From: a virus
Lineage: Duplodnaviria; Heunggongvirae; Uroviricota; Caudoviricetes
DNA: 64,000 bases
IMG/VR virus record: IMGVR_UViG_2700989400_000004
Span: 6,939-70,938 of that record
Strand: one strand, 5' to 3'
Translations under genes and position numbers: made by a program
In this document: positions 6,075-57,874 of the stretch, in pieces
Position numbering within the stretch: the stretch's first letter is position 1
Layout: each line of letters opens with the position of its first letter
Notes under the pieces: model-generated
Told to the model about the DNA's origin: nothing
Databases searched by the model: none
Seen by the model: only the letters and a program-made list of their open reading frames with translations

Positions 6075-6983
6075 TTAACTTTGCAGATAGCCGCATTCTC
6101 GCCGGAATTGCGTGATTAATGACGCGGTCAGTGGTGTCTGGCGACTATCACGCCGCTGAATCAAATAATAGGCCGCTTTCGGTAAAATTTCGCTAACCGG
6201 CAACATCACCAGCCCCTGTCCGTGCAAGGGATCGCAGCCCATTTCTTCAGGCAGTATGCTGAGAAAATCGCTTTTTGCCACCAGACTGATACAGGCTGAG
6301 AACGTCTCGCAGACTACACCGACCTGTGGCGTTTGCGCCTGATCGTCAAGCAATTCACTCAACTGTTTGTAGTAGCTGCCGTGTGGCGTCGGCATTGTCC
6401 AGCTGTAATCCAGTAACTGTTTGATCGAACGGGCACCAATGGCGGGGTGTCCCGGGCGGCAAAAGATCGCGAATTGCTTTTCCAGTAATTTCTCAAAAGT
6501 AAATTCGTGGTCGTACGGTCCCTGATAATAGGTATTGATGGTGAAATCCAATTCTCCCTGACGCAATTCATTAATCATCGACACCAGTTGCCCTTCCATA
6601 ATGCGTACTTTTACCTGCGGATGCTGCTGATGAAAACGAGATATGACAGCTGGCATCAGACTGCGGGAAATACTGGCCCCCATGCCGATATTAATCTGCC
6701 CTGCCAGTTGCCCTTGTCGTTGGCGAATATCCTCTTGGGCTGCGCGCAGTTCTTCAAGAATAAGACTGGCGTGCTGATAAAAACTTTCACCGGCATCAGT
6801 TAACGTCACGCCTTTACTACGGCGAAAAAAGAGTTGCGCCGCTAATCCTTCTTCCAGCTCCTGAATAGATTTACTCAGTGCCGGTTGCGACATATTCAAC
6901 ATTCGGCTCGCTCCGCGAATGCTGCCCTGACGAGCCACTTCAACAAAAGCACGAATTTGATGAATTTTTACCTGAAAAGCCAT
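6075..6983 (-). CDS. abgR: LysR-family transcriptional regulator AbgR
   Basis: 302-aa ORF with N-terminal LysR HTH (…IRGASRMLNMSQPALSKSIQELE…) and substrate-binding domain; divergent from the abgA operon. Confidence 0.9.
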   Translation of the reverse strand: MAFQVKIHQIRAFVEVARQGSIRGASRMLNMSQPALSKSIQELEEGLAAQLFFRRSKGVTLTDAGESFYQHASLILEELRAAQEDIRQRQGQLAGQINIGMGASISRSLMPAVISRFHQQHPQVKVRIMEGQLVSMINELRQGELDFTINTYYQGPYDHEFTFEKLLEKQFAIFCRPGHPAIGARSIKQLLDYSWTMPTPHGSYYKQLSELLDDQAQTPQVGVVCETFSACISLVAKSDFLSILPEEMGCDPLHGQGLVMLPVSEILPKAAYYLIQRRDSRQTPLTASLITQFRRECGYLQS

Positions 6984-20942: not shown

Positions 20943-21080
20943 ATGAAAATTGAAGTTTTAGCACTAATAGCAATGGGCTTGATAGTATTTGGCGTGCACG
21001 CTGCGGATTGGGACTGGTGCGCAATAGCTGAGAACATGGCGCACGCTCACCCAATAGGCTTGATGCACATGAACTTCTAA
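20943..21080 (+). CDS. small exported or membrane-anchored His-rich peptide (45 aa)
   Basis: MKIEVLALIAMGLIVFGVHA / ADWDWCAIAENMAHAHPIGLMHMNF: signal-peptide-like N-terminus with VHA-A site; GGGGTGA SD. Confidence 0.4.
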   Translation: MKIEVLALIAMGLIVFGVHAADWDWCAIAENMAHAHPIGLMHMNF

Positions 21081-21308: not shown

Positions 21309-21337
21309 TAAGGGGGTTACCCCCCTTATTGTTTTAT
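21309..21337 (+). terminator. intrinsic terminator ending plus-strand moron island
   Basis: AGGGGG-TTA-CCCCC hairpin followed by ttattgttttatttg. Confidence 0.45.
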
Positions 21338-21617
21338 TTGTCGTGACGACTTTCTATTTCATAGATGATCGCCATTCCTACCGCGATAATAAATACCATT
21401 ACCAAGCCATCAACCAGCATATTAAACGCCCTCAATCAAGAATAAATATTCCTTCCCTTCGTAAGATCTGCATCCCACATACCCGTCGCCGTAGTCATGC
21501 AGATACCAGGTGTTCCCCTTATCACTCACCACTGTGAGATTATCGATCTGGTAGTCTTCGAATAGCGTAAATGATTCATCGCCAGTCTTAACGCACATCC
21601 CGTACATATTGCCCCCT

Positions 21618-37206: not shown

Positions 37207-37290
37207 TCAATATCTAATGATGATATATACGCAACCCACACAACTTGCGCAGTATGTTAAAACTTCCAACCAGTCGAATAGCTCTTTCAT
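37207..37290 (-). CDS. micro-ORF 10 of array (27 aa, single hydrophobic helix)
   Basis: MKELFDWLEVLTYCASCVGCVYIIIRY; AAGGGT SD; start overlaps stop of micro-ORF 9 (ATGA). Confidence 0.35.
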   Translation of the reverse strand: MKELFDWLEVLTYCASCVGCVYIIIRY

Positions 37291-37430
37291 TGTTTACCCT
37301 TGAATCTCTGTTTTGCTTCTTTGTAAATAAGCCCGGTAATCATTACGATCACGTATACGCATAACAGTAACGCGGCAATAAGCACGCATGAGCAAACTAA
37401 GAACATTAACAGATCGATGAATTCAAACAT
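37287..37430 (-). CDS. micro-ORF 9 of array (47 aa, single TM helix, basic tail)
   Basis: MFEFIDLLMFLVCSCVLIAALLLCVYVIVMITGLIYKEAKQRFKGKQ; AAGGGA SD. Confidence 0.35.
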   Translation of the reverse strand: MFEFIDLLMFLVCSCVLIAALLLCVYVIVMITGLIYKEAKQRFKGKQ

Positions 37431-37440
37431 AATTATCCCT

Positions 37441-37512
37441 TTACGTAATCGAAAACGCCCAGATAATAATGACGATAGCCAAAACCATATAGATAAAATC
37501 TGACTCTCTCAT
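37441..37512 (-). CDS. micro-ORF 8 of array (23 aa)
   Basis: MRESDFIYMVLAIVIIIWAFSIT; GAGGG SD; ATGA overlap with micro-ORF 7 stop. Confidence 0.35.
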   Translation of the reverse strand: MRESDFIYMVLAIVIIIWAFSIT

Positions 37513-37589
37513 CTTTTTAACCCTCGATAAAAATCAACGGCAATAACTACAACTACAGCCACCAGCAATAGCATTTCATATGCGTTCAT
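37509..37589 (-). CDS. micro-ORF 7 of array (26 aa)
   Basis: MNAYEMLLLVAVVVVIAVDFYRGLKR; overlaps 3' end of micro-ORF 6 in another frame. Confidence 0.3.
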   Translation of the reverse strand: MNAYEMLLLVAVVVVIAVDFYRGLKR

Positions 37590-37683
37590 TGACACTACCT
37601 ATAACCAGACCAATGATTATGATTATGGCGACAATGCCTAACATCATTCCGCACATAATCGCCAGTAATTCGAATATATCCAT
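37576..37683 (-). CDS. micro-ORF 6 of array (35 aa)
   Basis: MDIFELLAIMCGMMLGIVAIIIIIGLVIGSVNERI; AGGTGA SD 5 nt upstream. Confidence 0.35.
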   Translation of the reverse strand: MDIFELLAIMCGMMLGIVAIIIIIGLVIGSVNERI

Positions 37684-37691
37684 ACTGTCAC

Positions 37692-37781
37692 CTATGGGCG
37701 ATCTCTGAACATCGCATAGAAAAACCATATAACAATCGCCAGAATAACCAGCGGTATTAACTCATAGAATGGGCCGTACAT
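37692..37781 (-). CDS. micro-ORF 5 of array (29 aa)
   Basis: MYGPFYELIPLVILAIVIWFFYAMFRDRP; AGGTGA SD; the ORF-track entry 37692..37886 is this peptide with an implausible upstream extension. Confidence 0.35.
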   Translation of the reverse strand: MYGPFYELIPLVILAIVIWFFYAMFRDRP

Positions 37782-37789
37782 AAATTCAC

Positions 37790-37864
37790 CTATACAACAT
37801 TCTTCCACCAGAAATAGATAATGACGGCGACCAACGACCACCAGATGAGATCGTAAATATTCAT
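37790..37864 (-). CDS. micro-ORF 4 of array (24 aa)
   Basis: MNIYDLIWWSLVAVIIYFWWKNVV. Confidence 0.3.
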   Translation of the reverse strand: MNIYDLIWWSLVAVIIYFWWKNVV

Positions 37865-37875
37865 GGTGAATACCT

Positions 37876-37962
37876 TTAGCTTTCAATGAATATCATGATC
37901 GCCAGCCATACAGCGACGCAGGCAGAAAGGATAATGAGCTGGTCAATCATATTGTCACCCAT
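37876..37962 (-). CDS. micro-ORF 3 of array (28 aa)
   Basis: MGDNMIDQLIILSACVAVWLAIMIFIES; second ATG has GGGTGA SD. Confidence 0.35.
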   Translation of the reverse strand: MGDNMIDQLIILSACVAVWLAIMIFIES

Positions 37963-38058
37963 CTAATATTTGCTCTTTACGGTTATCAGTACGGCGATAA
38001 CAAAGCCAACCAGAAATATAGATATACCTATTAATCCGGCGATGGTGCTATCGTCCAT
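37963..38058 (-). CDS. micro-ORF 2 of array (31 aa)
   Basis: MDDSTIAGLIGISIFLVGFVIAVLITVKSKY; AGGT SD. Confidence 0.35.
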   Translation of the reverse strand: MDDSTIAGLIGISIFLVGFVIAVLITVKSKY

Positions 38059-38060
38059 AA

Positions 38061-38144
38061 TCAACCTACGGGCCATTTTGGGGAAAACATTACAATCGCA
38101 GTTGCAGCCGCGCCGATAAATACACCTAGCAGGAAAGTAAACAT
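38061..38144 (-). CDS. micro-ORF 1 of array (27 aa)
   Basis: MFTFLLGVFIGAAATAIVMFSPKWPVG; GGGGGTGA SD; starts 3 nt after stop of the HExxH gene. Confidence 0.35.
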   Translation of the reverse strand: MFTFLLGVFIGAAATAIVMFSPKWPVG

Positions 38145-39286: not shown

Positions 39287-39769
39287 CTATTTCTGTCTTG
39301 TGCATTGTGTTCGTATGTAGTTTTGTAGTTCAGTTATTTTTGCATCTTTCTGTGCTAACCCTTCTCTGAGGGATAGATAATTTGATTGAGCGCTGGCAGT
39401 AGGTCTACAGGTGGCTCCATCAATGCGGCCGGTGGTTCCGGCGGGATCGGACACTCGCACAGGTATTGCGTTGACGTGCAACCGGATAGCACCGCTATCA
39501 ATACCAGCACGCAGATCAGCAATGTCGGACCTGATAGCTTTAATTTCATCGTGATACCTCTTATCAAGTTTTGACAGTTCGGCGTTTCGCTCCTTCATTT
39601 GCTGTATGGTGTTACTCGCTGTTTTTAATGCGCCTTGCGTCGTCGTTAGTTCTTCCTGTAAGCGCGTTACAGCTCCCTGTGTCTGACATAGTGCAGCGGT
39701 AAGCCCGACGATAATGCAAACAACCACGGCGATGATTAACGCCTTTATCTTGTCCACGTTTCCCCCCAT
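39287..39769 (-). CDS. Rz: i-spanin Rz
   Basis: 160 aa; N-terminal TM anchor then coiled-coil; last gene of lysis cassette with Rz1 embedded in +1 frame. Confidence 0.7.
39355..39549 (-). CDS. Rz1: o-spanin Rz1 (lipoprotein embedded within Rz)
   Basis: [24 protein letters not shown] lipobox then Pro-rich mature part (…[19 protein letters not shown]…); entirely inside Rz in another frame. Confidence 0.6.
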   Translation of the reverse strand: MKLKLSGPTLLICVLVLIAVLSGCTSTQYLCECPIPPEPPAALMEPPVDLLPALNQIIYPSEKG

Positions 39770-40236
39770 TCACAAACGGCATATTCAACATCACGGCGGT
39801 TAATTAACCCTTGCCATTTCTGACCACCAGCATAAATCCAGCGTTTAAGCTGTGCGCACGCTTCTGATTTCTTGCCGTCATTGAGTAGTTTTAATAAGGT
39901 TGATGTTTTGAAGTTGGTAGCGCCTACGTTATAGGCGAACGAGTAAAGCGCGGCGCGGGTAAAGTCGGAGATTTCTACCTTGATATAAGGGTCAATAGCT
40001 TTCGCCACCTTGTGAAGATCTTTATTAAGCAATGCCTCACATTCTGCCGGGGTGTAAGTCTTGCCTAGCATAATGTCTTTTCCGGTGTGACCTGCGCATA
40101 CGGTCCAGACACCAATAACATCACGGTATGGCTTGTATTCCACGCCCTCCAGCGGTTTAATCATCACGGCAGCAATTGCTATTGCCCCACCCGCCGCAGC
40201 CGCCAGAATCTGGCGTTTTAGCGTTTTGCTAATCAT
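39745..40236 (-). CDS. SAR endolysin (phage lysozyme, signal-anchor-release type)
   Basis: N-terminal weakly hydrophobic Ala/Gly-rich SAR segment (…[15 protein letters not shown]…) followed by lysozyme core …[33 protein letters not shown]… closely resembling phage 21-type endolysins. Confidence 0.85.
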
Positions 40237-40445
40237 AACTTATTCATCTCCAGGTTGTGCCTTTCCTGTTCGCGCTTGTTCTCCTGTCGCTTGTAGTACC
40301 AATTAACCGCGAATGTGCCTATCGTGCACCCGATACCAACTATCACGGCTATGTCATTCAGGGATAAACCGCCAATTATGGTTGTCAGAATACCAGCTAC
40401 ATAGCTTGCGGCCTCCCTTGTTCGCGTGATTAACGTGGCGATCAT
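40233..40445 (-). CDS. class II holin (pinholin-like)
   Basis: 71 aa, two predicted TM segments and charged C-terminus; GGGGGT SD; overlaps endolysin start. Confidence 0.65.
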
Positions 40446-43400
40446 TAATACCCCCAACAAAACAAAAACCCGGCGCGGGGCCGGGTGGATACAATTTCGC
40501 ATTGTTAGGAAATATTTTAATCCGTTTGTTTAATCCATACAAATATGGCTTACATCTTCCTTTCTATAAGGTCGTTATCCAGTAATAAACGCATGTTATC
40601 GCGACGCATACTACTTACTTTCCAATACTGGTCACTTAGTGTCTTTATGAAAATTTTGTCACCTTTTACCATATATGCAATCGAGTGATATTTATGGATA
40701 TATACACCATCTTCGATCTCATTCATAAATCACCAACCTTAATCCAGAATCCGCGCTTAATCGCCCTGATGATAACTTTTGTTGTCCCACGGAAAGGCGG
40801 TTCAATCCACGGCTCAAACTTATAAAGTCGCGTCAAAACGTGTTCACCCTCAAGGCGATAATAAGCGCGTGTAATCAACGATTGATATACGCCGTCATAT
40901 TTATGGTCGCTATTTCTCATTTTTGCGTTCCTTAATGGCTCTTTTGATCTGCGTGCGCGTGGCATCGACGAGAGCGATAAACACCGCTATAGGCCAAAAA
41001 GGGATGAGCCCTCCACGGTCGAGATCGTTACTTGTGATGAAACAAGCCATCAGGATAGCGCCAGCGATATAAAGGAGAACTACCGCCAGGATAAGCAATT
41101 CAATCATTCTCACCCCCTAAGCGTTGATATATTTCCTCTGCATCCTCCCCGCGCTCAAAGCAAAAGTTTTCAAATAGCCGCCAGTATTCAGCAAACGCTG
41201 ATAAATTAGTCATTGTTTATTCTCCTTCGTAAAAAGTCGTCACCAGTTCGGCATCAATTAAGGTGTTATGTTCTACCCAAACCCCGTGGCGCATTGCGAA
41301 AGCTATCTCACCAGCTATTTTTCGCCACATAGGAATAGATTCATCAAAATATGTTTTTTCCAATTCCTCATTGTATGTCAATTCGCAAAACCGACCACGA
41401 TTAACATCTTCAATCACGCGGGAGTACTCGCCATCAAACCTACTAACTCCGCGCCATAGTTTGATCACAACCATAATTAAACTCCGTTTGATGGGGCCAT
41501 CCGGCCCCGTGGTAAATTTATATTCGTTACAAGTTGTGCGGCAAAACATCCGGTCAAAATAGCTTTCCATCAGAAAACCCCTTTATAATCGACCGTGTAT
41601 TTCGCTATCAGGTTCCAATCGCAATAATTAAGCATGTCGCGCGGTTGCCAGCCTTTCATGCCAACCGCCCGCCGCGCAGCGTGGCGGCGATAATCGTCAT
41701 TAAGATCCGCAATGCACCACGGCTGGAGTACAAACATATAATTGGCCTCATTAATCAGGATAGCTACCCGTTTCCCTGTTGCCTTATCTTTTGCCCTGAA
41801 ATAATTCACTTTCACTTTCATTTTAATACCTCGTCGATCAGCATTTCTTCTTCCAGGTTAGCCGGACGTTTACGGAATATCCCGGCGAAGACAAGATCTT
41901 CCAGTAGGTCTTTGCGCTTAAATAACCATTCCTTCATTATTACCCCGTCATCGCTGCGATATACGACGCCGTTTTTCAGAAAATAAAAAGTATGGGTATT
42001 CGTCTGAAGGTATAAGTCTTCGTAAACGTCCATGATATTAACCCTCGACTACTTGCAGCCCACGCCCCTTGTCGCCCACGAAGTCGCCCAAGCTGAACGT
42101 GTACGACCACGCCGGATTGATATAATTTTCATCAGCACCGTGAGCAATAAGGTCTTTACCCAAAATGACGCAGGTCACATCATCAGAGTGAATAACGTCT
42201 ACCGTTTCACCGACTACGCGTTTTAATGACGGGTATCCGTGATCGTGCAAAAACTTAACCTTCATTATCCACCCCGTCTTTTTTGATTATTTTTCGAATC
42301 CCTTCAAAAATTTCCACGCTTGAGCTATCTATAATCATTTTTACATGTGGGTTATAGCGTTCCGATAGGTATTTTTGTATGTTTTCAATAGATTTAATAA
42401 ACATCCGATCTTCATCTTTAGTAAAATTACTGTTCATAATTCAATCTCCTAGCGGTCAATGCTTATTAAAAAATTCAATGATGGGTAGCCGTGATCGTGC
42501 AAGAATTTAACTTTCATATTTCTTTCTCTTGTAAGACCAACAATACCGCCAGCATTTCCCCGTCATGTAATGGGTCTGGAATAGCAAAAAATATGTCGCT
42601 GTTTCTGTCCGGCACTACAACGCGCATATTTCCTTGTTTGTCTTCATGAACAAACCACGGCTTTTCGTGTGGCTCAAACATACCAAAAAGCAATTTAAGA
42701 TCTATTTCTTCGCCCTTCGTGAATAACGATACATCCGTTGTGGCGATAACTAACGCTTTCTTGTCTGCCATTTTCTTCGCTCTCATTACTCTGTATCCCA
42801 TCGTTCAATACTGATTAAAAAGTCCCGGATAGCGTGGCGCTCGTCTCGCGTAGGTTTGCGCTTCCGGTAAATTTTAAAATCAAACCATTCTTTTTCTTGT
42901 TCGAAATCCAGATCGTAAGCAAGCGCCTCAATATATCCGCATTCGTGATACTGGTACGCTACGCCAGCACGAACAAAAAAGCGGGTTTTATCCCGCTTAT
43001 GCTCATAGATACGCATATTTCCCCCGCTATGCAGTCGTGTAGCTGTCTACTAACTTCTCATCCTTCATTCTGGCAAGCTGGCTAATATTCATCGTGTAGC
43101 CGCCATCAGAGAAAAGCCACTCCGCCGCCTTGCGACGAAAAGTAGTATCATCATGGTTGCGCGTCCATGTGGCGATCACCACGCGCTTTCCGTCAGTGGC
43201 AAACATAGATAATTCATTATCAACTACGTCGATAGCCTGCCAGATTTTTAGCTCCATGATTTATCCCCGTAAATTTTGAATAATTCCTGTGCTTCCTGAT
43301 CTTCGAATAACTTCATATGCAGATCATGCAGGCGTCGCATTGTGCGGAAGCGTGGTCTGAATTCTTGACTTCGTTTAATGCATTTACCACCTATTGAGTA

Positions 43401-48602: not shown

Positions 48603-49091
48603 TTAGTCATTATTTGCACCTCTTGCGTATAGCTCTTTACGTGTTATCTGCGTGAAAATACATTCATGTTTGCACCGTGGATGCCAGATCAAGAACAAGC
48701 TCCCTTTATTGTTTCCGCTTGCTGGCTTACCCGTCGCAGCATTAATAAACGCCAGCCGCCCGCGCGTGATTAAGCGACATTCGCTTGCCGTCTCCAGGCC
48801 GTTCATAAACCAGTTAACAGAGATATCAGCGGGCAACAACATTACACAGCCAATATGATTTCGGTGATGTTCCATCGCTGCCTTATCTACGAATGGCCCC
48901 GGATTCGAATATGGCGGATTAAGCCAGACATATTCACCAGGCATTGCTACCGCTCCCCACGGATAATGGAGTGTGTCCATCTCTTCGGTTATATATCGCG
49001 GAACTAATGCGTTTGCCTTGTTTGCCGCCACATCCGCGACGAATTCGAATTCACGGTCCATTCCTCTAAAACGGGTTTTGGCGTTTGCCAT
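48603..49091 (-). CDS. phage-type DNA N6-adenine methyltransferase (Dam-like)
   Basis: …EYVWLNPPYS… catalytic NPPY motif in a ~160-aa phage Dam-type protein. Confidence 0.6.
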   Translation of the reverse strand: MANAKTRFRGMDREFEFVADVAANKANALVPRYITEEMDTLHYPWGAVAMPGEYVWLNPPYSNPGPFVDKAAMEHHRNHIGCVMLLPADISVNWFMNGLETASECRLITRGRLAFINAATGKPASGNNKGSLFLIWHPRCKHECIFTQITRKELYARGANND

Positions 49092-50120
49092 AAGTCCTTT
49101 ATTTCTTTTGGCGTATGGCTTCCGCCGTAATCATTTTTCATTACGCCCCCTTAGAAATAATCCTGATCTGCTCCCCAGCGGTTATTCAGATATCCCACCA
49201 ACCACACAAAACGCTCAATACTGATTAGCGGGGCGACCTTGCGATAATGCTTATCTAATATCAGCCGCGTGGCTTTATCGCTATATCCGTTTCTTTCTAC
49301 CTCTGCTTTGCAGGCAGAAAGCGCCGCGCGTGCGGCAGTTTTTACGGCGTTGAATTGCGGCTCTGACAGGTTGAATAAAGCCATATAATCACCACGGATC
49401 ATCTCAATAAGTCGAGGCCACCCAGAAAAAACCCACGAAAACACTAAAAGCGAATAGCACGCGTATACCCAAAAGCAATTCCGCCCACGACTGAACATCA
49501 GGAAGCGACCATGTGATAAACATTGCGCCGACGATCAGGACGGCAATAACAACGGCGCACGCCAGGAAAAATAAAAGCGCGGCTGAAAGCCACGCCCCAA
49601 AAAAGTGAAACACTTCTCTTAACATTTAAACGTCCTCAATTACCCCGCCTTTCACGCGTTCTTTAATATCCCATACGTGAGGCTTACACATTTCTTGATA
49701 ATAGTGATCCGGCCTGCTGCCGAAATACCATTTGCCATCCATATAAAAATAAACGCCCGAAAAATTACCAGGTGCGGCCTTTGTTGCTGCTTCTGGAATT
49801 TTCCATTCTCTGTAGTGTTTAAACTTCATACATTAACACCGCCTTTTTAAGTTCGCTTAATTCAAAGTGCATCAAGCGAAAATGCTGTACACCGCCAACA
49901 ATACTGACCTGATAAATATCACCAACGCAGTTATAGTAATAACAACCCAATTGACCGATTCCGGCTAATTTAGCGTTATCCGGTATCATGTATTCGCCAA
50001 CCTTTTTCATATTCAGCCTCACAAATATTTTTCAATCACCCAGCGGAGAAACAAACCAACCGCCACGATCCCCCAGCAACAAACCATGAAGTAAAACTCG
50101 GCCTCATTCGCACTCATTCC

Positions 50121-50658
50121 TTACCTCCCGTGGTTTTCATGATACCCGTACTCGATTTCAGCTTTACGCCTCGCTTCGATCGCTTCATCTATGCTATCTG
50201 AGTAGCATAGATATTTTTTCTTTCCGTCAACGGTAATATAAGATCTCCATTTCTGAGTTAATTTATCCCAATAAACACCCGTGCATCCAGAAGTGTTATT
50301 TTTCTGCTTAGCTCTATTCTTTGCGTTTTCCTGTCTCGTCACTATTCGAAGGTTATCAAGCCTATTATTAAGGCGATTATGTCTATATGGTCTATTTGAT
50401 AGCCTTCCGGGATTGGGCCGTTGTGCATCTCCCATATTATCCTGTGAACGCAATACCTTTTCCCGCAAAACATAAACCCCTGTACCCACCCTCATACAGA
50501 GTACTCCCTGCTACGTCTCCGGCTTTAACCCTGAAACCAGTAGGTTTCTTCCAAATTAGATTGACTCCGTCGTAATAAAACCACTCTCGCCAGTCAATAG
50601 CGTCCATTGTGTTTTCCCTCTTCCCAAGCGAAATACCCGACAAAACCAACCAGAACAA
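50121..50658 (-). pseudogene. HNH-AP2 homing-endonuclease-like gene split by a frameshift
   Basis: 50121..50495 carries HNH (…YRHNRLNNRLDNLRIVTRQEN…) and AP2-like (…GVYWDKLTQKWRSYITVDGKKKYLCYSD…) motifs; the N-terminal-like part is in another frame (50437..50658). Confidence 0.4.
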
Positions 50659-52617
50659 TCAACCAGCAAGCCAGGATTAAATCAATCAGCCACATGATTA
50701 AGCCTCCATAACCGCGTAATCGAAGCGCCCTAAATACATCTCGATGCCGATCATCTCGACGCCCTGGACGTCCGCGCCCCATACAGTTACGTGATAAGCG
50801 TCCTCCCGCCATTGTTCATGGCTTAGCACTTCGTTTGCTGGATATTTCCGCCCCGCGACGTAAGCGCCCGGACCTACGCCACCTTCTACGCAATACAGCA
50901 TGATCTGGTTTTCCATATCGCACCTCGTTAATAGCAAACTGCGTACATACAGATCCCGTTGTTAAAGGCTTTGATGATCATGTCGATGACCATGTAAACG
51001 AGCATTACAGCCGCCGCTGGGACAAGGATCGCGAATAGTCCGCCTAACGTGCGCTCAATAATGAAATGCGGGTTTACTTTGCTTTTGTGGTTACGTTCAA
51101 AGTTTGTCATCTTCCCGCCCTCCGTGCTGTATACCTTTCGACTTCAGTTTACAAAACGGATACAGCGGGACAATACAAAATGTATATTTATGTGATCGGT
51201 ATCACGCGATTAATGCAGTACACGTTTTTCCGGGTGAGGCATTGGCTGTGCACGTTTCCGCGCTTCATTCAGCACTGACGCCACCGCCCGGACGCCAAAA
51301 TCATTAGCCCGCATATCATTGCCGACCATCTCGCCATAAATAAGCGGCATAAATTGCCTTGCGTTATCCTCGATGTGTCCATTTTCAACCGCTTTCTGAA
51401 GTACGCCAGCCTCAAGGATATCGCGCATCAGTTCACGGATTGTATATAATGAAGCACTACCCATCGCCCCTTCGCCCAGCGGGACAATCACCGCGCTACC
51501 ATATGCAAGCGGATCCAGTTCTTCCGGTACTGGTACACGTCCAAAATCTTCTTCCATGCGTTTTACGAAAGTAAGGCAGAAGACGTAACGCGCTACCGAT
51601 GTTTTCTCTTCCGCATTCAAAGATACGTAATCGCGCATTGACGCATCCATTACAAGATCAGCAATTTGTAGCGCCAGGTTTAAATCCCCGTCATACACGC
51701 CCGCGTCCATATCTTTAATGACTTCGTGGTAGTTCTTTGTTTCCACTTCATGAAAACATGCGTCCTCTGTGTAGCGAGTGATTAACATGCCTTCGCTGCC
51801 AAGTGAATAAGCTGTTTTGATGTCGTTCATGATATTTATCCTTATAACGGGTGATGCCATCGCATTTCAGTTTCTGAATTAAACGGGATACCTTCGCTTG
51901 AAAGGAATAAATCACGCTCCCGTTTCAGTTCTTCCGGGCTTATTTCTATTTCATCAATCTGACCGAACGATCCCGGCATCATTCTTTTTAAATCAGATAG
52001 CGGACGCATAAGGCCGCAACCGCGTAACAGCATATCGACCGCGAATTGTCTACGTCCGGCGGCGTCATTAAAGCGCCGTGCCCAGGGCACAACCACGATC
52101 CGGCGTTCGAATTCGATAAATAGTGATAGCTTGTTTGTTTCGCTATCATATGCTTTATGGAATTTAATTTTCATTTAACACCTCGACGTATTGCTCAAGA
52201 TGCCATTTACCCACCTCGTCGTCTTCTTCATCAAATAATGTTACTTGACCCCCTGGCCCGAAAGAAAAGGCAGCGACAATAAATTTATAGCCATACCACG
52301 TGCGGATCTTTTCGCCGCCTTTCAGGTCTTTAACTTTCACTAATTTTATAGCCATACGCCAAACATCCCATTCAATCCGGCGAACAACTGCCGCCAGTGG
52401 TCTTCAACATAAGCCCGGAAAGGCTTAACGCGAACATTGCGGGCCTTCAGCGTGATACTGTCAAAATAACGCGGCTCGATCAGCGTACCATCAAGGTATT
52501 GAACGAGGATCGGGCGCTCAAAGTCGCTACATGTTTTATTCAGCACGACCAGACCGGGGTCACTACGATATGCGGGCAAAACAACGAGATCACCCGCCTT
52601 TGCATCCCATAACATCA

Positions 52618-52737
52618 TCACATCACCCCTTTACCAATAAGGCCAATCACCGCCGCCAGTGCGCCACAAAAGACAACCGTAAACAGGAAGCAAATAACGC
52701 AAAACGCGACCGTTACAATATCCTTACTGACTTTCAT
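52618..52737 (-). CDS. micro-protein, single TM helix (39 aa)
   Basis: MKVSKDIVTVAFCVICFLFTVVFCGALAAVIGLIGKGVM; GAGG SD; stop overlaps next start. Confidence 0.3.
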   Translation of the reverse strand: MKVSKDIVTVAFCVICFLFTVVFCGALAAVIGLIGKGVM

Positions 52738-52745
52738 AATTAGCC

Positions 52746-52859
52746 TCACATATTAGTAATCAGTTTGATGATCGCCACCGTAATATAAAGCGATACGCTG
52801 AGATACAGCACCGCCACCGCTACCGCCGCCAGCAATGCGGCAATTTTTGCGAGATTCAT
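52746..52859 (-). CDS. micro-protein, single TM helix (37 aa)
   Basis: MNLAKIAALLAAVAVAVLYLSVSLYITVAIIKLITNM; strong GGAGGG SD; ATGA overlap with upstream stop. Confidence 0.3.
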   Translation of the reverse strand: MNLAKIAALLAAVAVAVLYLSVSLYITVAIIKLITNM

Positions 52860-53388
52860 TTGCCACCCTCCGCTATGAATTTATCAAGCCATTTATTATT
52901 CGCCAGGCGTTCGGCATCTTCGCCAAATGATTTACGGTCGCTTAATTCCTGGCGCGTTGGAAAATTCCAGTGGTCATGCCAACCCGCAGACGTTTCGAAT
53001 TCATATAAGCCGCCGCTAAAAGTAACAAGCTCGTCAGCACCGTCGGGTATTTCTTTATCGACTTCTTTATCTTCGATCATGATTGACACCTCATTAATCG
53101 TTAATAACCTGGCCCATACGCCCGCGATATTTGCGCATACGTGGATCGACATATTCAGGCCAATGCATATCCTGTTTTCTTTGCAGTGGGTAAAAACTTG
53201 CCTGCCAGTTGTCGAACCATATTTGCTTTGCGTACAGGTCACTAAATCTTTTCGCCATCCGTTCAGCCGAACTACCAGCAATAAAAAACCCGCGATCGAT
53301 TTGATCACGGGCTTCTTTCAATACTTGCTCTTTTGTTCGTGGTGGCGGCGGCGGTTTTAAATAATCGCCCATCACTAACCTATCGATT

Positions 53389-53802
53389 CTAAAACGGGAT
53401 ATCTGGATCGAAATCATCCGGCGGCGGATAGTTTCCATTATTGTTTTGCGGTTGCGCTTTCTGCTGCTGGCCTTGCTGCTGGCCCTGTTGGTTAACGTTC
53501 ATGAATTCAAACTCACTAACCACCACTTCTACCGCAGTCCCCTTCGTGCCGTCATTCCGGTCATATTGCCGAACATCCAGGCGACCGCTTACAACAATTT
53601 TTCCACCCTTGCGGATATGTGGCGCTAATTTTTCCGCACGCTCACCAAATACCAGACAAGTGATCCACATTACCCGCTTATTATCACCGTAGCCATTCGT
53701 TACAGCTAACGGGAAGTTACCGATCGCTTTACCGTTTTGCGTGTAGCGGACTTCCATGTCATTTCCGATATTCCCGCCCAGCGTAATTGAATTTAAACTC
53801 AT
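53389..53802 (-). CDS. ssb: single-stranded DNA-binding protein
   Basis: OB-fold N-terminus, Gln/Gly-rich linker and acidic C-terminal tail …DDFDPDIPF. Confidence 0.85.
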   Translation of the reverse strand: MSLNSITLGGNIGNDMEVRYTQNGKAIGNFPLAVTNGYGDNKRVMWITCLVFGERAEKLAPHIRKGGKIVVSGRLDVRQYDRNDGTKGTAVEVVVSEFEFMNVNQQGQQQGQQQKAQPQNNNGNYPPPDDFDPDIPF

Positions 53803-54443
53803 TAACCCATCTCCCCGTTAAGCTCTGATTTTCTGATCTGGTATACGTCGCTTGCTTTCTGTCGTTGCTCTGAATTTTCAGGTAATAACTTCCAGCATTT
53901 AGCAAAAATATCTTTAAGCGCTTTTTCGTCCGGCGCTTTCGATGCTGCATCACAGAAACGCGCTAATACTTCATCAGGATTTGGCGGCGCTTTCGGCTGC
54001 TGTGGTTGTTGTTTTGGCGGGTTTTTCTGCTGTCGCGGCTGTTGTCCTGTCTGCTTAGCGTAAGCATCAGTATCTAAATCTTTCGCGTCATCAATACAGA
54101 ACAAGCCGTTTAAAGCATATTTTCGCGCGTAACTTGATGTCGCCCCTGTTAACTGGCCCGCCGTCATGCCCTTTTGCTCTTTTTCCTCCCTGGCGAACGC
54201 AGTAGCTGAGATTGAATCTTCACCGTCGCTTAGTGTCGCCGTAGCTTTCACATAATAGCGATCACCAATCAGGACAATTTCATCACTAACCATTAATGTG
54301 ACGTTTTGAAGCAGTGGCTTGACAGCCTCTAAAATATCCTCAGCCGACCTATAGCTATAGCCACCGAATTTATTGTATTGCCCTTTTGGCGCGTTCAGTG
54401 TTTGCTGAATCGTCCACAGTTTTTTGTGTAACTCTGTTTTCAC
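53802..54443 (-). CDS. erf: ERF-family single-strand annealing recombinase
   Basis: …FGGYSYRSAEDILEAVKPLL…SDEIVLIGDRYYVKATATLSDGEDS…GATSSYARKYALNGLF… matches P22 Erf-type proteins; GTG start with AAGGAG SD. Confidence 0.75.
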   Translation of the reverse strand: MKTELHKKLWTIQQTLNAPKGQYNKFGGYSYRSAEDILEAVKPLLQNVTLMVSDEIVLIGDRYYVKATATLSDGEDSISATAFAREEKEQKGMTAGQLTGATSSYARKYALNGLFCIDDAKDLDTDAYAKQTGQQPRQQKNPPKQQPQQPKAPPNPDEVLARFCDAASKAPDEKALKDIFAKCWKLLPENSEQRQKASDVYQIRKSELNGEMG

Positions 54444-54592
54444 TATTTGATCTCCTTCGCTGTTAACACTACGTATAAGGCTTTATTCGCGGCGCTCCAC
54501 ATTTCGGCATCGTGAAGCATTTCCGCTACTGCCAGTTTGAATTGAAGCGCCTGAATAACCATAATGTCACCTCCGATTGTATACATTTTGTA

Positions 54593-54883
54593 TTAATGGT
54601 ATCGAACTTTATCTAACGGGATCTCCCAAAGCTGGCGCGGCTGCGTTGCGTGGAAGTAGTTGCCGCTTTCATTTTCCTGATACCATTTTGTCGCGCCCTT
54701 GCGACGTTCTTTAACGCTATTTGATTTGCATCTTTCCTCATTTGCAAAGCGAATAGCTTTTTCCACTTTATCAATCTTCTGTATGTGCGGGCCTTCGTCT
54801 TGTTCGGCTGCCCGCTTCATCCGGCGGCGCTTCCGTGCATTTAATTTGCTCTCACAGTTACCGTAAATGATCTTCGCATTCAT
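54593..54883 (-). CDS. putative N-like antitermination protein (arginine-rich motif)
   Basis: First gene of the leftward operon after the repressor; ARM-like RKRRRMKRAAEQ; AAGGAG SD. Confidence 0.35.
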   Translation of the reverse strand: MNAKIIYGNCESKLNARKRRRMKRAAEQDEGPHIQKIDKVEKAIRFANEERCKSNSVKERRKGATKWYQENESGNYFHATQPRQLWEIPLDKVRYH

Positions 54884-55321
54884 AATCTTTTCTCCTTAGT
54901 TAAAATCATGTTTGCTACATTTCAGTAGCGACCAGATTGTTAAAGAGAATGGCTTAACATCGTTCAACTAATCCCGCAATCATCGCCGTTTCCGGTGTGA
55001 CACCACTCAATCCAAGTGATCTGACTCGTCGCCTTGCGTGCGGTTTCGTGGGGGATGTAACGCTTTAAACACCCCATGCGCCTTGTTATCAGTGCCGCTT
55101 TCGGTCCCACATCGGGGAGTTACTCCACGGTTGACAAGGTGTTAAGCCTGATTTTTAAAGTGCCTGGAAGGTGTTTTTGTTTCCTGTCTCCTTCCTTTGA
55201 CTCGCAATATACGCCCTGTGATATGTCGAGTCAATCCATTTTGTATACTTTTTTAAAATATTTTCTATCTCATTGATATTTAAATGATAAAACCCGTTCT
55301 CGGTTTACATTTTGGTGCTTT

Positions 55322-55348
55322 CTGGGCAAAGAAAAGCCGCCATCCGGC
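55322..55348 (-). terminator. intrinsic terminator after repressor gene
   Basis: GCCGCC-ATCC-GGCGGC hairpin with T-run on minus strand, 10 nt after repressor stop. Confidence 0.45.
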
Positions 55349-55357
55349 GGCTAATGT

Positions 55358-56005
55358 TTATGGCAGATTTACGATCTTCGCGTCCACCACCACGCCAATA
55401 ATTTTTGATTCAGGATTTAGCGGGATTGGTGGATACAACGGATTAAGCGAACGTAAAAGCCTTTGACCTCCATCAATAATCAACTGTTTAAACGTCGGCG
55501 TTTGCCCTTCCTCCAATTGGGCTATAACCAGTTTGCCGTCAATAGCTGGCGCGTGTGGATCAACAAGTATCATCGTTCCCGCCGGGATGCTCAATCCTTG
55601 CGGCGCGTTCATCGATTCACCTTTTGCAACCAGCCAATAACTATCATCCGAACAAATCACGCTAGTGTTAACGTGCGGTAATGATGCGCGTTTTGCTTCT
55701 TCCATGTAGTTTCCTGCGTCTTTCCAGTCAATCACCGGATAACGCCCTACGTCGAGCGGTGGCGCTCCCGGCAGTGTATTAGAAAGTGAATCATCAATAA
55801 CCATCCCATCATGTGTGACCGTAAACTGCCGACGACCAAGCGCCCGCATGATCCGCGCAATATCTTCCAGGTTAGGCTCACGACGACCATTTAGCCAGTG
55901 TGATAAGCCGCCCTTTGTGATCCCCATGAGATCCGCCAATGAATCCTGGCTCATACCTTGCGCCCGCATGAGTTGTTTAGCTAAGTCATACCATTTTGTT
56001 TTCAT
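55358..56005 (-). CDS. cI-like repressor (HTH + LexA-type S24 peptidase domain)
   Basis: N-terminal HTH (…QDSLADLMGITKGGLSHWLNGRREP…) and C-terminal autocleavage domain (…VAKGESMNAP…AGTMILVD…); divergent from replication operon. Confidence 0.8.
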   Translation of the reverse strand: MKTKWYDLAKQLMRAQGMSQDSLADLMGITKGGLSHWLNGRREPNLEDIARIMRALGRRQFTVTHDGMVIDDSLSNTLPGAPPLDVGRYPVIDWKDAGNYMEEAKRASLPHVNTSVICSDDSYWLVAKGESMNAPQGLSIPAGTMILVDPHAPAIDGKLVIAQLEEGQTPTFKQLIIDGGQRLLRSLNPLYPPIPLNPESKIIGVVVDAKIVNLP

Positions 56006-56313
56006 GTCGCTACCCTATCGCCCTAAAAAGTTTGATGCAAGTCACAAAATGTATTTTTCAAGTCTTGACCTAAAAACGCCATTCTGTAAACTTGCAGACA
56101 AGGTAAAGCCAGACTTGCAAGGATGCAAGAAAAAAGATAAGGGAATAGCACAAAAAGGCGCATACCTTAAAAGCTCTTTAAAAACCCGGTGTCGCTGCGA
56201 AGCGAAAAACAAATATCACGCAACGGCGGGATCTGTTGAGCGGTCAATCACTGCTATCTAATGCTAATGGGATACCCGCCCGCGCGTTCATTTTAACCAT
56301 AGGAGAAAAATCA
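56006..56313. promoter_or_regulatory. divergent immunity promoter/operator region
   Basis: 308-bp gap between divergent repressor and rightward operon; repeated CTTGCAAG-type palindromic half-sites (56036-56130); no cro-sized ORF found. Confidence 0.5.
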
Positions 56314-57772: not shown

Positions 57773-57874
57773 ATGAACGGTAAACGCATGTTCGCCCTGG
57801 CTTTCGCGATCGCGATGGCTATCGCTGTTAACGTGATGCTGTTCGGCGGGTTGTACCTGCTTGCGCATCCATAA
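57773..57874 (+). CDS. small hydrophobic membrane peptide (33 aa)
   Basis: MNGKRMFALAFAIAMAIAVNVMLFGGLYLLAHP; GAGGGAGG SD; preceded by long imperfect inverted repeat (57691-57743). Confidence 0.4.
   Translation: MNGKRMFALAFAIAMAIAVNVMLFGGLYLLAHP

Follow-up and report, generated by a model that had tools for sequence, protein, structure and literature searches.

In this study, we have examined two very small tandem open reading frames (ORFs), here called ORF-A and ORF-B, in a 64,000-nucleotide stretch of DNA (the window; positions 6,939 to 70,938 of the IMG/VR virus record IMGVR_UViG_2700989400_000004) that carries an mEp021-like ("mEpimmI") prophage of Escherichia coli. Comparison across related loci confirms that ORF-A and ORF-B are genuine protein-coding genes under protein-level selection, and we consider it probable that their products are single-pass inner-membrane peptides of an antiterminated early operon that act on a larger host membrane protein. 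Both are functionally uncharacterised phage-encoded small membrane-spanning proteins, and both are under-annotated by standard pipelines. With lengths in amino acids (aa), the two genes are:

ORF-A: 52746..52859, minus strand, 37 aa, predicted single-pass membrane micro-protein, MNLAKIAALLAAVAVAVLYLSVSLYITVAIIKLITNM
ORF-B: 52618..52737, minus strand, 39 aa, predicted single-pass membrane micro-protein, MKVSKDIVTVAFCVICFLFTVVFCGALAAVIGLIGKGVM

Coding evidence for ORF-A and ORF-B

The translation signals of the pair are tightly interlocked. A Shine-Dalgarno sequence, GGAGG at 52867-52871, stands seven bases 5' of ORF-A, whose ATG overlaps the TGA stop of an upstream 74-aa gene (ATGA). The GG directly after the ORF-A stop forms, with that stop, the Shine-Dalgarno site of ORF-B (TGAGG), and the ORF-B stop in turn overlaps the ATG of a downstream 90-aa gene (TGATG). 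An alternative GTG start for ORF-B at 52749 was considered and dismissed, since the spacer of 8-10 nucleotides carries 1-nucleotide indels in relatives, which put this GTG out of frame. Together, the two ORFs occupy exactly the 237 bp that are left without annotation both by the Prokaryotic Genome Annotation Pipeline (PGAP) of RefSeq in strain RM9245 and in the mEp021 GenBank record. Each peptide is essentially a single hydrophobic helix, about 26-29 residues long, and has a lysine close to either end, and the best 17-residue Kyte-Doolittle window reaches 2.66 for ORF-A and 2.96 for ORF-B; in size and hydrophobicity, both agree with single-pass small membrane proteins (at most 50 aa, one spanning segment).

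Using the 90-aa gene as an anchor, we collected 41 related IMG/VR viral contigs (loci L004-L044) and compared 45 loci in all, including that of E. coli RM9245 (L001). Among the viral contigs, ORF-B is intact in 41 of 41 and ORF-A in 40 of 41, the single exception being a 1-nucleotide deletion near the start (L014). Length variants come in multiples of three only (35, 37 and 39 aa for ORF-A; 38, 39 and 40 aa for ORF-B), and the most divergent ORF-B variant stands in an identical gene order. The ratio of nonsynonymous to synonymous substitution rates (dN/dS), calculated according to Nei-Gojobori across distinct sequences in frame and in the two other frames, was as follows:

ORF-A: 0.19 in frame; 1.08 and 1.62 off frame
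ORF-B: 0.33 in frame; 0.77 and 1.13 off frame
90-aa neighbour: 0.21 in frame; 0.96 and 1.64 off frame

Variable sites number 34 at third codon positions versus 17-23 at first and second positions. Constant across 31 distinct sequences are the Shine-Dalgarno sites, the ATGA overlap, the GCGGAGG...AAATGA motif, the TGAGG-spacer-ATG arrangement (ATGTGAGG-spacer-ATG) and the overlap of the ORF-B stop with the next start. On this comparative evidence, start codon, Shine-Dalgarno site and protein-level selection are present in both genes, and in the sampled members of the mEpimmI group ORF-A and ORF-B, like a 32-aa gene described below, belong to the core. The first-pass annotation of this DNA had proposed a tandem of tightly coupled 37- and 39-aa hydrophobic ORFs; its coordinates are confirmed, and the frame-specific selection together with the conserved Shine-Dalgarno sites and overlaps bears out both their reality and their coupling.

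These data bear on two readings in which the peptides themselves would have no role. In the first, the interval would be a non-coding, intergenic terminator region in which the ORFs occur by chance. It draws on the missing annotation in PGAP and in the mEp021 record, and on the terminator, TERM_2, that the latter places there:

52825..52841, no strand given: GC hairpin within ORF-A codons 7-12, the equivalent of which is annotated as TERM_2 in mEp021 (L002 6050-6066)

In mEp021 the hairpin is followed by a T-run, which is absent from the minus strand of the window and of many relatives; on the plus strand of the window the hairpin is followed by AATTTTTG. Whether the T-run exists is set by the codons for ORF-A residues 13-14 (Leu-Ser vs Val-Ala). 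Together with the frame-specific substitutions, the indels of 3n only, the conserved Shine-Dalgarno sites and starts, and the 14 micro-ORFs observed against 0.2 in shuffled sequence (see below), the lack of this T-run leaves the non-coding reading with next to no credibility. In the second, the micro-ORFs would be translated spacers only, through which ribosome traffic couples the flanking genes and shields the RNA from Rho or from an internal terminator, the peptides being inert. The stop/start overlap at every junction and the terminator-like hairpin inside ORF-A in mEp021 would suit such a role, but a pure spacer would tolerate any sequence, whereas purifying selection acts here on the amino acids (dN/dS 0.19-0.33, similar to the ordinary neighbour gene) and some residues are invariant. 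In addition, both ORFs stay intact even where an insertion separates them: in E. coli STEC308 (L048 1559-2525), a 0.7-kb KilA-N domain gene sits exactly in the 8-nucleotide spacer between ORF-A and ORF-B. We therefore hold the spacer reading to be very improbable.

The distribution of the selected residues differs between the two peptides. In ORF-A, K5, I6, A7, Y19, S23 and Y25 are invariant, and the best-conserved parts are the C-terminal half (YLSxSLYITVAIIKLITNM) and, near the N-terminus, the motif KIAAL; in ORF-B, the invariant residues are F12, C13, F17, G25, A28 and A29, and conservation is highest in the N-terminal two-thirds. A conserved helix face was also considered and abandoned, as the periodicity of sequence variability was not significant. 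The alanine-rich N-terminal half of ORF-A varies and its C-terminal half is nearly invariant, which would be expected if ORF-A were a precursor whose residues 1-23 form a signal peptide (S-V-S at -3 to -1) and release a conserved 14-residue C-terminal peptide, LYITVAIIKLITNM; judged by reading the sequence, S21-x-S23 fits the -3/-1 rule. However, the peptide that would be released is strongly hydrophobic and runs on from the helix without a break, and ORF-B displays the opposite pattern, with its N-terminal part conserved. This precursor reading is also the less simple one, and we give it very little weight.

Both families have been seen before as sequences. The exact ORF-A peptide is present on 451 contigs, with the entry AEE56291.1 ("hypothetical protein UMNK88_1694"). 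When ORF-A was searched by phmmer against 1.84 billion representative proteins, the 2 representatives returned both belonged to its own family; against the phage collection, tblastn with ORF-A gave no match, probably owing to the low-complexity filter. The ORF-B protein cluster has 72 members, and a profile search with ORF-B retrieved 72 clusters, all of 37-48 aa, the named ones coming only from E. coli, mEp044 or uncultured tailed-phage records. PHANOTATE and other gene callers independently predict ORF-A and ORF-B; in the PHANOTATE-annotated mEp044 record (PP180004.1), ORF-A, ORF-B and the 32-aa ORF are mEp044_27, mEp044_28 and mEp044_34, each a "hypothetical protein". In Pfam, PHROGs, NCBIfam and PADLOC, no family was found for ORF-A, ORF-B or the 32-, 33- and 60-aa proteins of the same region, nor for a 65-aa protein in NCBIfam and PADLOC, where alone it was searched. 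As far as these searches reach, the ORF-A and ORF-B families occur only in this phage group; some pipelines call them as genes, and no function has been described for them.

The early operon and the inheritance of the pair

Over bases 49000-54000, the window is 80-84 % identical to the temperate coliphages mEp044, MagusPhagus, mEp010, mEp554, mEp013 and mEp021, and matching prophages occur in 35 of 5,426 complete E. coli genomes, with identity up to 92.6 %. The mEpimmI group consists of Nus-dependent, non-lambdoid gut coliphages, and the terminators of the mEp021 early operon are read through via the N-like antiterminator Gp17 at nut sites (PMC11893012). In the window, the minus strand carries in order the repressor (55358..56005), Erf, Ssb, the micro-gene region, methylases, Nin-like genes, a Q-like gene, lysis genes, and head and tail genes; the putative Q-like gene was assigned solely from its synteny with mEp021. 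ORF-A and ORF-B are located within the long minus-strand early operon, between the following genes:

52856..53080, minus strand: upstream 74-aa gene (phrog_28542, function unknown), whose stop overlaps the ORF-A start
52346..52618, minus strand: downstream 90-aa gene (phrog_28396, function unknown in PHROGs), translationally coupled to ORF-B

The pair has no promoter of its own and is embedded in the operon by translational coupling; the single minus-strand promoter-like match in 49300-53500, at 52145-52174, lies downstream of both genes. ORF-A and ORF-B do not, then, form the independent transcription unit that characterises type I toxins.

This organisation is important for another reading, according to which ORF-A and ORF-B would be membrane-damaging toxins, either type I-like (Hok, TisB, Ldr) or holins, perhaps held in check by an antisense RNA. 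The size and hydrophobicity of the peptides fit type I toxins. An RNA of about 100 nucleotides antisense to ORF-A could be delimited by a plus-strand promoter-like site at 52712-52740 and, on the same strand, a hairpin plus T-run at 52825-52849, and the downstream 90-aa gene is labelled as a toxin in RefSeq, where PGAP names its product "toxin-antitoxin system toxin subunit". Against this, neither peptide matched a type I toxin family in Pfam, NCBIfam or PADLOC at E-values up to 0.01, nor a holin family in the Pfam scan, and the pair lies 12 kb from the lysis cassette, in which the true holin (40233..40502) is found. A search of Rfam over 49300-56200 at E-values up to 1 found nothing, antisense RNAs included. 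The antisense signals change in relatives (CATAAT to CATGAT, GTTACA to GTCACA, with the T-run lost in one sequence type), are not conserved beyond codon requirements, and belong to a class of promoter-like sites that are fewer than expected from shuffled sequence. Operon-embedded, coupled genes without promoters are also unlike type I loci. The label on the 90-aa gene is without model support: its product matched no model, toxin or other, in any profile hidden Markov model library searched (Pfam, NCBIfam, PADLOC), and nothing among the sequences of the PDB at E-values up to 10, and a scan of genome contigs gave only a spurious Bacilli match. All considered, we find the toxin reading unlikely.

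The inheritance of the pair was followed with a Mantel test, in which the pairwise DNA distances of adjacent 114-nucleotide segments were correlated:

ORF-A with ORF-B: r 0.69, p 0.0005
ORF-B with the start of the 90-aa gene: r 0.43, p 0.0005
3' end of the upstream 74-aa gene with ORF-A: r 0.06, p 0.23

The correlation between the 74-aa gene and ORF-A is thus near zero despite their physical overlap, which places mosaic breakpoints at the upstream border of ORF-A and only rarely between ORF-A and ORF-B. This fits the inheritance of ORF-A and ORF-B as a cassette of two genes, perhaps three. As an observation on the neighbouring gene, the conserved 3' end of the 74-aa gene (52856-52900, encoding ...SFGEDAERLANNKWLDKFIAEGGK) looks like a recombination boundary between mosaic segments.

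Other micro-ORFs of the prophage

Further small genes for hydrophobic proteins, and one decayed endonuclease gene, are found in the same early region and upstream of the lysis cassette:

50019..50117, minus strand: 32-aa micro-protein, predicted single-pass, with ribosome-binding site GGGAGGTAAGGAATG; core to the phage group
50594..50695, minus strand: 33-aa micro-protein, predicted single-pass, with ATG start and Shine-Dalgarno site GGAGG; accessory; protein cluster of 12 members
50928..51110, minus strand: 60-aa predicted single-pass membrane protein; accessory; annotated as hypothetical (WP_057697143.1)
40910..41107, minus strand: 65-aa protein (67 aa if started at the GTG at 41113) that has two hydrophobic segments plus a basic tail and is encoded upstream of the lysis cassette
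49404..49625, minus strand: 73-aa protein, group-wide in its conservation, with at least two membrane-spanning segments
50121..50607, minus strand: decayed HNH homing-endonuclease gene in three reading frames, inserted where the 33-aa gene meets the 32-aa gene

The first four of these are each preceded by a Shine-Dalgarno site. By tblastn, the 32-aa gene was found in 42 of the 45 loci (all 41 viral contigs and the RM9245 locus), and its dN/dS is 0.22 in frame versus 1.0 and 2.0 off frame. The genes of 33 and 60 aa are restricted to 3 loci, those of the closest relatives, and look selected, with dN/dS of 0.14 and 0.065 from few sequences. The genes of 60, 65 and 73 aa are already annotated in RefSeq. 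In relatives, PGAP names the 73-aa product "cell division protein FtsK", for which no match was found in Pfam, NCBIfam or PADLOC; this name and that of the 90-aa protein ("toxin subunit") look unfounded. The 65-aa protein was considered as a holin and dismissed, the true holin being part of the lysis cassette (39287-40502):

40233-40502, minus strand: holin (Phage_holin_2_3, E 1.8e-18)
39745-40236, minus strand: endolysin, whose hydrophobic N-terminal segment suggests a signal-anchor-release domain
39287-39769 and 39355-39549, minus strand: Rz with embedded Rz1 lipoprotein

The first-pass annotation had extended its claim to several of these genes, and most of what it said can be retained. Its 32-aa peptide at 50019-50117 with a ribosome-binding site is present, core to the group and under selection; the 33-aa stretch that it placed within a longer interval corresponds to the ATG-started ORF at 50594..50695; and its 60-67-aa membrane proteins exist, one of 60 aa and one of 65 aa (ATG start) or 67 aa (GTG start). 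The single-helix nature that it attributed to them holds as a prediction for the 32-, 33-, 37-, 39- and 60-aa proteins, and fails for that of 65 aa, which, like the 73-aa protein, has two hydrophobic segments. It had also described the prophage as unusually rich in micro-proteins. The count supports this, but the richness turns out to be shared by the group, as set out next.

Micro-ORFs were counted with a fixed scan, in which an ORF qualified if it started with ATG, encoded 22-50 aa, reached at least 2.2 in a 17-residue Kyte-Doolittle window and was preceded at 3-11 nucleotides by a Shine-Dalgarno site:

this prophage: 14 micro-ORFs
mEp021 (45 kb): 8
lambda: 0
HK97: 1
20 kb of host flank: 2, of which 1 lies in a gap between ORFs
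30 trinucleotide-block shuffles of the prophage: 0.2 +/- 0.4

All 14 micro-ORFs of the prophage fall in gaps between ORFs of at least 85 aa, 13 of them on the coding strand, and 8 belong to an array at 37287-38144, which the first-pass annotation had handled as a separate item. An all-against-all comparison of the 14 proteins (91 pairs, maximum z 3.9) gave no significant similarity, and they are therefore not one duplicated family. With the 8 micro-ORFs of mEp021, richness in micro-ORFs is a trait of the whole mEpimmI group and not of this prophage alone.

Several other micro-ORFs deserve mention. The array at 37287-38144 (minus strand) is flanked by a 180-aa gene and the small terminase subunit, and its membrane-spanning micro-ORFs, of 23-47 aa each, follow one another in tandem; four micro-ORFs of such an array are found in mEp021 in an unannotated 485-bp gap (L047 16413-16732), and some members are common to the window and mEp021, for example MNAYEMLLLVAVVVVIAVDFYRG.KR and MID.LIILSACVAVWLAIMIFIES. 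On the strand opposite to the tail genes, a 45-aa ORF (20943-21080, plus strand) has a signal-peptide-like N-terminus (MKIEVLALIAMGLIVFGVHA/ADWDW...) and is conserved, again unannotated, in mEp021 (L047 32730-32867); a 28-aa membrane-spanning ORF lies near it (21334-21420, minus strand). Beyond the repressor, a 33-aa hydrophobic ORF with a GGAGG Shine-Dalgarno site (57773-57874, plus strand; MNGKRMFALAFAIAMAIAVNVMLFGGLYLLAHP) stands between two large plus-strand genes. The sole scan match in HK97 is a 32-aa hydrophobic ORF that is preceded by a Shine-Dalgarno site and missing from the annotation, located in the gap that separates tail genes K and I (L050 13560-13658, plus strand).

In the decayed HNH gene, the HNH_3 profile match is divided between two reading frames (profile positions 2-25 and 26-45), and the N-terminal part of the gene lies in a third. 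In relatives, the stop of the 33-aa gene overlaps the start of the 32-aa gene (by 11 nucleotides in RM9245; L001 3100-3125). The HNH gene borrows the old start of the 32-aa gene, ATG-GAC-GCT, and in turn supplies the 32-aa gene with a different N-terminus and with a strong site for ribosome binding. Both the KilA-N and the HNH insertions sit exactly at micro-gene borders and leave the micro-ORFs intact.

Proposed function and comparison with known systems

Based on these results, we favour a model in which Gp17-dependent read-through of the operon terminators would lead to production of ORF-A and ORF-B during lytic development, with translation running in coupled fashion from the 74-aa gene through ORF-A and ORF-B to the 90-aa gene. 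Each peptide would, judging from its composition, insert as a single-pass inner-membrane helix. By analogy with other small membrane proteins, the pair, possibly with the 90-aa protein, would then probably bind a larger host membrane protein or complex and alter its activity; candidate targets are found in division, in envelope synthesis, in proteolysis and in transport or DNA entry. The 32-, 33- and 60-aa ORFs would be additional, unrelated examples of such genes, the first core and the other two accessory. A more ambitious version, to which we assign a low likelihood, is that ORF-A, ORF-B and the coupled 90-aa protein make up an undescribed, group-specific two-peptide membrane effector that seizes or shuts down a host inner-membrane machine in lytic growth (division, envelope synthesis, or the DNA-entry route of a superinfecting phage), and that mEpimmI phages deploy a large set of such effectors, with at least 14 unrelated micro-proteins in this prophage.

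A number of observations weigh against the proposed action on a host membrane protein. Both peptides carry a charge of +1 at each end, so that the positive-inside rule leaves their topology ambiguous. For none of ORF-A, ORF-B and the 32-aa protein did the per-column entropy show significant helical periodicity (p 0.20-0.26). The families have no homologue outside the phage group and context therefore yields no functional clue, and the peptide strings of ORF-A and ORF-B appeared in none of the literature searched. The AlphaFold2 model of the 90-aa neighbour is of low confidence (mean predicted local distance difference test score, pLDDT, 50.5) and too poor for a claim about either its fold or a toxin function. 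Finally, the co-inheritance of the cassette could reflect where homology permits recombination, rather than co-adaptation.

Nevertheless, at least four conserved, selected genes within 3 kb are skipped by RefSeq PGAP and by the archetype phage record in an abundant group of human-gut coliphages, and one record places a terminator (TERM_2) inside one of them, ORF-A. By a single scan, the micro-membrane proteome is far larger than in the two lambdoid phages scanned (14 vs 0-1). A core, coupled and co-inherited cassette in phages that grow on K-12, such as mEp021 and mEp044, represents a tractable case for the study of phage micro-protein function. As the density of small membrane-spanning genes in phages is already established, the advance is incremental unless a new target or mechanism emerges.

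The closest known counterparts are mEp044_27, mEp044_28 and mEp044_34, and UMNK88_1694 of E. coli, which belong to the same families, positions and phage group as the micro-genes described here; the mEp044 and UMNK88 records list them without function, whereas RefSeq PGAP and the mEp021 record omit them. Among chromosomal micro-proteins, AcrZ, MgrB, MgtS, KdpF, CydX, SgrT and Blr are 30-50 aa long, have one membrane helix, have been missed by annotation and bind larger membrane proteins; they are mostly expressed from their own promoter or within the operon of their partner. ORF-A and ORF-B share their size and, by prediction, their single helix, without sequence similarity. The type I toxins (Hok/Gef, Ldr, TisB, Ibs, ShoB) are likewise small and hydrophobic (19-50 aa) and some are prophage-borne, but each is expressed from a promoter of its own and paired with a dedicated antisense RNA; ORF-A and ORF-B are embedded in an operon, match no toxin family and no Rfam RNA, and have no conserved antisense promoter. 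Kil and CIII of lambda and HK97 are a parallel in their size (about 50 aa or less), in their place beside recombination genes in an N-antiterminated early operon, and in modulating a host process, division for Kil and FtsH for CIII; they differ in not being membrane-spanning and in their gene order, and ORF-A and ORF-B had no Pfam match to either family. Gp11 of Staphylococcus phage PhiNM1 is a small early-gene membrane protein that blocks host division via MurG and DivIC (PMC11237401). It comes from a phage of a Gram-positive host, has no sequence relation to our peptides and is encoded by a single gene rather than by a coupled pair, yet as a small membrane protein from an early gene that acts on larger host targets, it resembles the working model that we propose for ORF-A and ORF-B.

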